DNA from: Clostridia bacterium
GTDB taxonomy: Bacteria; Bacillota; Clostridia; TANB77; CAG-465
Length of the DNA stretch: 64,000 bases
Assembly: GCA_045537895.1 (NCBI GenBank)
Contig: JAZSQI010000042.1
Span: forward strand, 7,111 to 71,110
Direction: 5' to 3'
The notes under the pieces were generated by a model that saw only the letters and a program-made list of their open reading frames with translations, was not told where the DNA came from and did not search any database. The translations under genes were made by a program, and so were the position numbers. Of the stretch, positions 62,042-62,288 are shown in pieces (position 1 is the first letter of the stretch; each line of letters starts with the position of its first letter).

Positions 62042-62132
62042 AAAATTCGTATTTTTAACGAAAAAATGATTATTTTTTAATTTTTTATTTTTATCACAAA
62101 AACTTTGTAAGCACTGGTATTAGTGAATTTGA

Positions 62133-62288
62133 AAGGTATCGATTACTGGGTATAAATTTTTGACAGCAACAGAAGTTGGTGTAAACTTAAAACAAGGATA
62201 CAATGGTGATTTAACATCTAGACAAGCAGGTTCTATAGGTGGTCAAATGGTTAAAAAACTTATAGAAAAGGCTGAAAGCAATATGTAA
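62133..62288 (+). pseudogene. ssp: 3' fragment of an alpha/beta-type small acid-soluble spore protein gene (insertion target)
   Basis: My translation from 62163 is TATEVGVNLKQGYNGDLTSRQAGSIGGQMVKKLIEKAESNM, then stop. This matches the conserved C-terminal two-thirds of an alpha/beta SASP. There is no start codon, and the conserved N-terminal region is absent. Confidence 0.75.

Follow-up and report, generated by a model that had tools for sequence, protein, structure and literature searches.

A 62.4-kb conjugative element in the only alpha/beta SASP gene of a Clostridia bacterium, and a recombinase clade that homes to this gene

We hold it as very nearly certain that a 62.4-kb conjugative element (ICE) sits in the only alpha/beta SASP gene (ssp) of a Clostridia bacterium, inserted there by a TnpX-like recombinase through strand exchange at a GA dinucleotide. 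The window, that is, the whole stretch of DNA analysed, is 64,000 nucleotides long (G000:C2:7111-71110), and its contig, C2, continues 7.1 kb leftward. Positions without a contig name are those of the window.

The split ssp gene and its att sites

At the right end of the element, positions 62160-62288 (+) translate into (M)TATEVGVNLKQGYNGDLTSRQAGSIGGQMVKKLIEKAESNM followed by a stop. This sequence matched the Pfam SASP family PF00269 over profile positions 19-59 of 59 (E=1.4e-19), in agreement with the initial annotation, which had recognized the conserved core and C-terminus of an alpha/beta SASP from 62163 onward. The core assignment stood, but the first three residues, TAT (62163-62171), belong to the element attP arm and not to host ssp: GCA ACA in the arm mimics GCT TCT in the host (Ala-Ser codons), and host DNA begins at the GA core, 62172-62173. 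The host-derived 3' part of ssp spans 62172-62288 (+), that is, codons 26-63 and the stop codon, and the ssp intrinsic terminator, a bidirectional hairpin, is intact downstream of it (62332-62358, +). Upstream of the fragment, we found neither an SD sequence nor a sporulation promoter nor an N-terminal segment; the absence of a promoter and of an N-terminal segment had been reported before.

Extending the contig leftward, as had been proposed, revealed the 5' half of the gene at C2:6779-6855 (+), ~250 bp left of the window and ~118 nt past the stop codon of the recombinase gene, whose 3' end it adjoins. This half has the promoter, the SD sequence, and codons 1-26, and encodes MASRNSYVNPNAKAALEKMKYEVASEV. 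Joined in silico, the two halves gave an intact 63-aa SASP ORF matching positions 1-59 of 59 (E=6e-29) with 100 bits vs a PF00269 cutoff of 22, the 5' fragment alone covering positions 1-26. Precise excision would, in silico, restore the interrupted sporulation reading frame, as is the case for intervening elements. The promoter upstream of the 5' half, CCAGTAT-N18-CA(C/A)A(A/T)TTA, is conserved in 20+ relatives, and the gene combines a forespore-type promoter with orthology to the intact ssp of relatives. Between this promoter and the SD sequence, the 5' UTR contains a hairpin, TGTAAAAC...GTTTTA(C/T)A (C2:6726-6775), conserved in relatives from many genera (L003-L021), which is probably an mRNA stability or translation element.

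Both junctions share GAAGT, and GA is the core of attL and attR, the crossover being placed at C2:6854-55 on the left and at 62172-73 on the right. The attR site (62148-62197, +) consists of the element P arm (62148-62171), the GA core (62172-62173), and the host B' arm (62174-62197); attL lies just left of the window, the left end of the element being at window position -256. In the rebuilt attP, 18/24 positions were dyad-symmetric when centred exactly on GA, vs 3-9 for other centres. This dyad symmetry is the signature of a serine-integrase attP; as is typical of large serine recombinases, attP is an imperfect palindrome of ~50 bp, centred on a 2-bp crossover that attL and attR share. The same att geometry recurs in three other elements (G080, G133, and G064). 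The crossover falls in Glu codon 26, within YEVASEVGV, and in the 24 nt of ssp that are conserved best (codons 21-29). It coincides with what we take to be the GPR cleavage motif.

Empty sites were found in three genomes of the same genus (G003, G004, and G005), each with one uninterrupted ssp, 90-94% identical to the join. Their alignments run collinear across the join point and into the flanks, with synteny kept, and G003 has an attB that differs very little from the rebuilt one. As with the missing half and the join, this was the outcome that the initial annotation had predicted for its in-silico checks. The element is present in one of the six genomes of the genus. In the host itself, a MAG of 49 contigs estimated to be 100% complete, searches with Pfam, tblastn, and phmmer --max returned no SASP gene beyond the two halves. 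The host keeps gpr (SASP-specific protease), spo0A, spoIIR, spoVT, and spoIVA. In spoIVA (G000:C21:29385-30800), we noticed a one-base frame break in the sequence ACA CGG AAA of the Walker A motif; if the C of CGG is left out, the canonical GPVRT-GKST is read. The break may stem from programmed +1 frameshifting at CGG, a rare codon, from an error in the MAG, or from decay into a pseudogene.

The element and the clade of ssp-homing recombinases

The whole element measures 62,428 bp (C2:6856-69283), and the part inside the window (1-62171) was delimited from the attL/attR cores and contains the T4SS genes. The latter include a VirD4/TraG-type coupling protein (5012-7024, -; T4SS-DNA_transf, E=3e-79) and a set of core conjugation genes (44684-51717, -) with a VirB4-like ATPase (44684-46342), a DNA methylase (46465-47178), a TrbL/VirB6-like protein (TrbL_4; 48670-49515), and a second VirD4 (49840-51717), all on the minus strand. 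Two VirD4 copies, a VirB4-like ATPase, and a TrbL/VirB6-like protein, together with a recombinase between att sites, identify the element as an ICE, and the earlier description as a conjugative element of more than 62 kb therefore held. A prophage reading was rejected because the gene content is conjugative. Searching the element for Pfam relaxases gave no match, and a 409-aa ORF at 52866-54095 matched no family. Further cargo includes an LPxTG thioester adhesin and MetK. A long array of imperfect repeats with a 15-nt period (20441-20880, -) lies within the ORF at 20271-20909, whose protein thus has a pentapeptide-repeat region.

Adjoining the recombinase is a regulatory module with a Spo0A-like response regulator (3872-4585, +; Response_reg + Spo0A_C, divergent, 35 bits), 20% identical to host Spo0A over its full length and recurring in related ssp-targeting ICEs (L062-L065, L149-L153). 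Two small sigma-70 region-4 proteins (1983-2405 and 3071-3508) adjoin it. The regulator could link the element to the sporulation phosphorelay.

The first 1,525 positions of the window (-) encode the N-terminal 508 codons of a large serine recombinase, the full gene (C2:6974-8635) encoding 554 aa. Resolvase, Recombinase, and Zn_ribbon_recom domains all scored above their Pfam cutoffs, the DUF4368 tail scored 17.1 bits vs a cutoff of 25, and the catalytic serine motif Y-x-R-x-S reads YIRLS (residues 17-21). Its best solved relative is TnpX (2mhc, E=3e-25). Contig C2 gave this one Resolvase-domain match and no tyrosine integrase, confirming across the contig that the serine recombinase is the sole integrase candidate.

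Across 301 genomes of the order to which the host belongs, we found nine recombinases with 63-68% identity to that of the element, the next-best reaching at most 51%. Beside each of the nine lies an ssp fragment, interrupted at the same Glu/Asp codon in every case, and these nine genomes have no canonical SASP gene other than the split ssp. Scanning GTDB genomes brought the clade to ~38 loci, all in uncultured gut Clostridia (chicken, rabbit, mouse, and human). When the 33 clade loci with an intact recombinase ORF were compared with 41 outgroup recombinases (34-41% identical), an ssp fragment lay within 400 nt of the recombinase 3' end in 31/33 of the former vs 0/41 of the latter. Homing to ssp was also seen in four divergent metagenome samples, and every split ssp gene examined (12/12) rejoined into an intact ORF. 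The ssp crossover codon is thus the dedicated attB of the clade. An ssp gene had at first been regarded as an unusual target for such an element; its role as attB stood, but the target is not an accidental one, since the whole clade is devoted to it. Elements of the clade range from cassettes of 4.6-7 kb to the 62.4-kb ICE described here, and no conjugation, phage, or relaxase genes were found in the compact 4.6-7 kb cassettes, of which that of G080 measures 6,953 bp. One sublineage, represented by host G186, showed a different arrangement (L100 / L056, G186:C8), in which attP is flipped relative to the recombinase gene, so that the recombinase abuts the 3' half of ssp; this host has tandem ssp genes, the second copy being intact. 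At L067/L068, the clade recombinase is spread over two ORFs (229 + 332 aa); they adjoin a split ssp, an IS110 transposase lies close by, and the copy is probably immobilised and decaying.

The recombinases were far more alike than the host DNA around them. Recombinase identity exceeded that of the adjoining host gene by more than 5 points in 94/110 locus pairs, with values such as 96% vs 64% and 87% vs 39%, which indicates recent horizontal spread among small-genome gut Clostridia. Ancient co-divergence or domestication was ruled out by these identities. The family is an active mobile one and not an anciently fixed switch, which shows that the ssp elements are selfish mobile elements first. 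In metagenomes, the same attL junction was present on at least five independent contigs. Samples containing the element include JGI 3300029705, 3300018493, and 3300018878 and Logan SRR27608064. All metagenomic copies of the element were in the attL form, contigs ending at the att site all reading attL, and a search of JGI metagenome contigs for excised circles, with degenerate and exact attP patterns, gave 0 matches. One copy (L151, on a contig of JGI 3300018493) has AA instead of GA as its attL core, changing Glu26 to Lys; the resulting mismatch with attR would block clean excision. This may be a decaying copy or a sequencing error.

The small ORF, its promoter, and a putative forespore switch

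Only two genes are common to the 62-kb ICE and the 5-7 kb cassettes, namely the recombinase gene and an ORF of ~48 aa. In the element, this ORF encodes 49 aa, MNKNTSRRNCSKIDKKEYIVKSVFDDESDVDINEIFKQSFLLKMKGENW, and lies immediately upstream of the recombinase gene (1613-1762, -). The order small ORF, recombinase, convergent ssp fragment was fixed in every clade lineage examined and in the four divergent metagenome samples. The family formed 118 clusters without Pfam domain or name, and a PHROGs search with the small ORF gave no match. Identity with TnpW was considered and rejected, as only 1/9 members matched (E=0.014, below the cutoff). The structure model (mean pLDDT 71) has a disordered N-terminus and a single amphipathic helix (residues 32-47), not enough for a fold search. 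From its linkage and size, the small ORF is a candidate recombination directionality factor. The related TnpX and TndX are reported to excise without a helper, so that a protein of this kind may be dispensable.

Upstream of the small ORF, we found a promoter of the forespore-sigma type, GTATA-N15-GGAAATATTA (1783-1812, -), ending 20 nt before the start codon. It scored 12/12 against the sigmaF consensus, a label that is loose here as the host has one forespore-type sigma gene. Such a score was reached by 0.1% of random genomic windows and upstream of only four SD-preceded ORFs genome-wide. Among 25 small ORFs of the clade, 14 scored at least 11/12, in each case 16-18 nt from the start codon, the boxes being conserved and the spacers divergent, and four more scored 10/12 at the same position; the background at 11/12 or above was 1.3% in random windows and 0/41 in the upstream regions of outgroup recombinases. 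The -35/-10 pair is kept across at least seven sublineages and is absent from the expected place in three (G252-like, G037-like, and L088/L091). In a G037-like locus, L064 (~3380-3500), a forespore-type promoter lies ~90 nt upstream of the small ORF and is followed by a terminator-like hairpin and a T-run before the SD sequence; the hairpin could be a leader/attenuator or the terminator of the preceding 66-aa gene.

The consensus sequences of clostridial sigmaF and sigmaG agree with those known from B. subtilis, sigmaF promoters are marked by a G upstream of the -10 box, sspA and sspB are direct sigmaG targets in the forespore, and gpr and spoIIR are sigmaF targets (PMC3789822). In the host, gpr (GAATA-N18-AATAATA), spoIIR (GTATA-N17-CATAATA), and also spoVT have a promoter layout like that of the small ORF, and a generic forespore pattern flagged 13 genes genome-wide, including gpr, spoVT, and the small ORF. 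A single forespore-type sigma gene was detected in the host. It is the best match to both the sigF and the sigG models, under both cutoffs, and adjoins sigE (the loci concerned are G000:C5:29381-30139 and C2:2256-3044), and sigF was not found after spoIIAA-spoIIAB. For these reasons, we speak of a forespore-sigma type. This small-genome host lineage may run its forespore programme with a single sigma factor.

The recombinase gene has a housekeeping promoter with an extended -10 box (TTGTAA-17-TGtTATAAT; 1564-1592, -; 10/12, TG present), and TGnTATAAT is conserved in all clade members examined. A sporulation promoter was sought for the recombinase and the idea dropped, this conserved housekeeping promoter being found instead; sigmaE- or sigmaK-type promoters were found upstream of neither the recombinase nor the small ORF. 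No terminator was detected between the small ORF and the recombinase gene, so that the same transcript could also raise recombinase levels.

An inverted repeat brackets the recombinase promoter, and its downstream arm is a 15-nt box in the recombinase 5' UTR (1540-1554, -; AAGGTATCGATTACT on the recombinase-sense strand), homologous to the clade box TAGGCGATTGCTT. A second, inverted copy lies at 62133-62147 (+), 25 nt inside the element from the attR core, and these two copies are the only ones in the genome. In seven of eight compact cassettes, the cassette's own box is likewise repeated in inverted orientation, 23-105 nt inward of the attR end. The box may be a protein-binding site coupling recombinase expression to the att site. 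The inverted 15-mers had also raised the idea of an invertible segment, or of a recombinase outside the element, which was rejected as the true attL lies past the recombinase 3' end; the 15-mer is a conserved accessory box and not the junction.

The small-ORF promoter suggests, from sequence comparison, that excision is timed to the forespore. The mechanism that we propose is that a constitutive recombinase integrates the element and that a forespore-induced small factor drives its excision and thereby rebuilds ssp, a proposal whose likelihood we place just short of even. The recombinase would be made constitutively from its extended -10 promoter and would alone drive integration. The ~48-aa ORF would be the directionality or excision factor, transcribed from the forespore-sigma-type promoter, and with no terminator before the recombinase gene, the forespore would be the place where excision is turned on. 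The ssp gene would then be rebuilt in the very compartment and regulon in which it is expressed. Since a spore does not divide, the excised circle could not be diluted, and after germination, the recombinase, now without the factor, would presumably reintegrate it. More tentatively still, we suggest a programmed DNA rearrangement that would be the first of its kind in the forespore, that is, in the germ-line compartment, with a ~48-aa factor driven by a forespore sigma, excision before SASP is needed, a circle residing in the spore, and reintegration after germination; as a complete cycle, we find it possible but rather doubtful. Excision in the forespore risks losing the element from the germ line.

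Plain homing without developmental control is a serious rival, and we consider it plausible, if somewhat short of likely. Here, ssp would simply be an ultra-conserved landing site, present in every spore-former; the spores of carriers would lack alpha/beta SASP or depend on rare spontaneous excision, and the small ORF would serve excision for transfer only, its forespore promoter likeness being incidental or serving another purpose. The recent horizontal spread seen in 94/110 pairs fits such homing, as do the highly variable cargo, from ICE genes to miscellaneous ones, the empty sites in sister species, the assemblies with attL forms and no attP contig, the sublineages devoid of the promoter, and the decaying copies (L067/L068 with its split recombinase and L151 with its attL core variant). 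Left unexplained, however, is the forespore -35/-10 pair kept at a fixed distance in at least seven sublineages (14/25 vs 1.3%). Moreover, inactivation of the sole SASP gene should be costly for spore-transmitted gut anaerobes, the host still keeps gpr, and all 12 split genes examined rejoin intact.

Two other readings fared much less well. A domesticated, immobile intervening element like skin, one that had become fixed in the lineage and was excised from mother-cell DNA, would account for the interruption of a sporulation gene and for compact relatives of 4.6-7 kb without mobility genes, yet ssp is needed in the forespore and not in the mother cell (PMC3789822). Given also the lack of a sigmaE- or sigmaK-type promoter upstream of the recombinase or the small ORF, the occurrence in one of six genomes of the genus, the strong horizontal signature, and the fact that the copy studied here is an ICE, we regard this reading as very unlikely. 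That the 3' fragment has nothing to do with the element boundary, being an old remnant or a chimera of the assembly, is a reading that could draw on the genome being a 49-contig MAG. It is refuted by the position of both halves on one contig, exactly at the element ends, with a shared core and a palindromic attP, by their undecayed state (90-94% identical to intact orthologues), and by the recurrence of the attL junction on at least five independent metagenome contigs, and is in our opinion most improbable.

Known elements and implications for spore biology

Full-text literature searches found no published account in which ssp is the target of a recombinase or one of the interrupted sporulation genes. 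The gin element, in gerE of Bacillus cereus ATCC 10987, resembles the ssp element in that it is not a phage and splits a very small sporulation gene, and both encode, close to each other, a large serine recombinase and a tiny, motif-less, element-specific protein (PMC5595907). In gin, the latter is GirX, of 42 aa, which is needed with GirC for excision and inhibits integration, GirC alone being sufficient to integrate (PMC5595907). The two systems differ in that gerE is a mother-cell gene and excision of gin was demonstrated experimentally (PMC5595907), whereas ssp is a forespore gene and the role of its factor is a putative one. In addition, unlike gin, the ssp element has a forespore-type promoter and is an ICE from a family that spreads horizontally.

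SPbeta in spsM (SprA/SprB) and skin in sigK (SpoIVCA; CD1231/CD1234 in C. difficile) are likewise serine-recombinase elements that split sporulation genes (PMC4191935, PMC5499854, PMC5025042). SprA is constitutive, and its factor SprB is under a sporulation promoter (PMC4191935); the logic proposed here, a constitutive recombinase and a small factor on a sporulation-specific promoter, is that of SPbeta and skin (PMC4191935, PMC5499854, PMC5025042). SPbeta is, moreover, an active mobile element that also serves as a developmental switch (PMC4191935, PMC5499854, PMC5025042). The initial annotation had drawn the analogy with skin and SPbeta, and it is sound as far as a serine recombinase splitting a sporulation gene is concerned; it breaks down at the target, a mother-cell gene in their case and the forespore gene ssp in ours (PMC4191935, PMC3789822). 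All described intervening elements sit in mother-cell genes, leaving the germ line untouched (PMC4191935). The ssp element departs from this defining trait of skin, SPbeta, gin, vfbin, and vrin, its target being a forespore gene dependent on sigmaG (PMC3789822). Because excision of SPbeta and skin is confined to the terminally differentiated mother cell, the germ line keeps these elements automatically, whereas for the ssp element, excision would take place in the germ line itself and would have to be followed by reintegration. SPbeta and skin are also phages or phage remnants, unlike the ssp elements, which are an ICE or a cassette.

Tn4451/Tn4453 (TnpX) and Tn5397 (TndX), from Clostridium perfringens and Clostridioides difficile, are, like the ssp element, clostridial conjugative or mobilizable elements with a large serine recombinase, and TnpX and TndX use a GA crossover dinucleotide. 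Their targets are relaxed or different, whereas the ssp clade is strictly ssp-specific and always comes with the small ORF. The Listeria phage phi10403S in comK undergoes active lysogeny, being excised reversibly, with neither loss nor lysis. Functionally, it is comparable to the proposed cycle, in which the element would excise, restore the gene, persist as an episome, and reintegrate; this is an analogy only, as recombinase class, trigger, and host biology all differ.

Alpha/beta SASPs are the main DNA protection of spores, and the host has a single gene for them. The ssp-homing family must either severely impair spores in many gut Clostridia or give the gene back when it is needed. The clade is also a source of natural serine integrases whose attB/attP pair of 50 bp is defined and whose candidate directionality factor is tiny. 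As known intervening elements act in mother-cell genes and leave the germ line untouched, forespore excision followed by reintegration, if true, would be a different solution to the germ-line problem, and would amount to a reversible, heritable gene switch carried on horizontally spreading ICEs and mini-cassettes of gut Clostridia.
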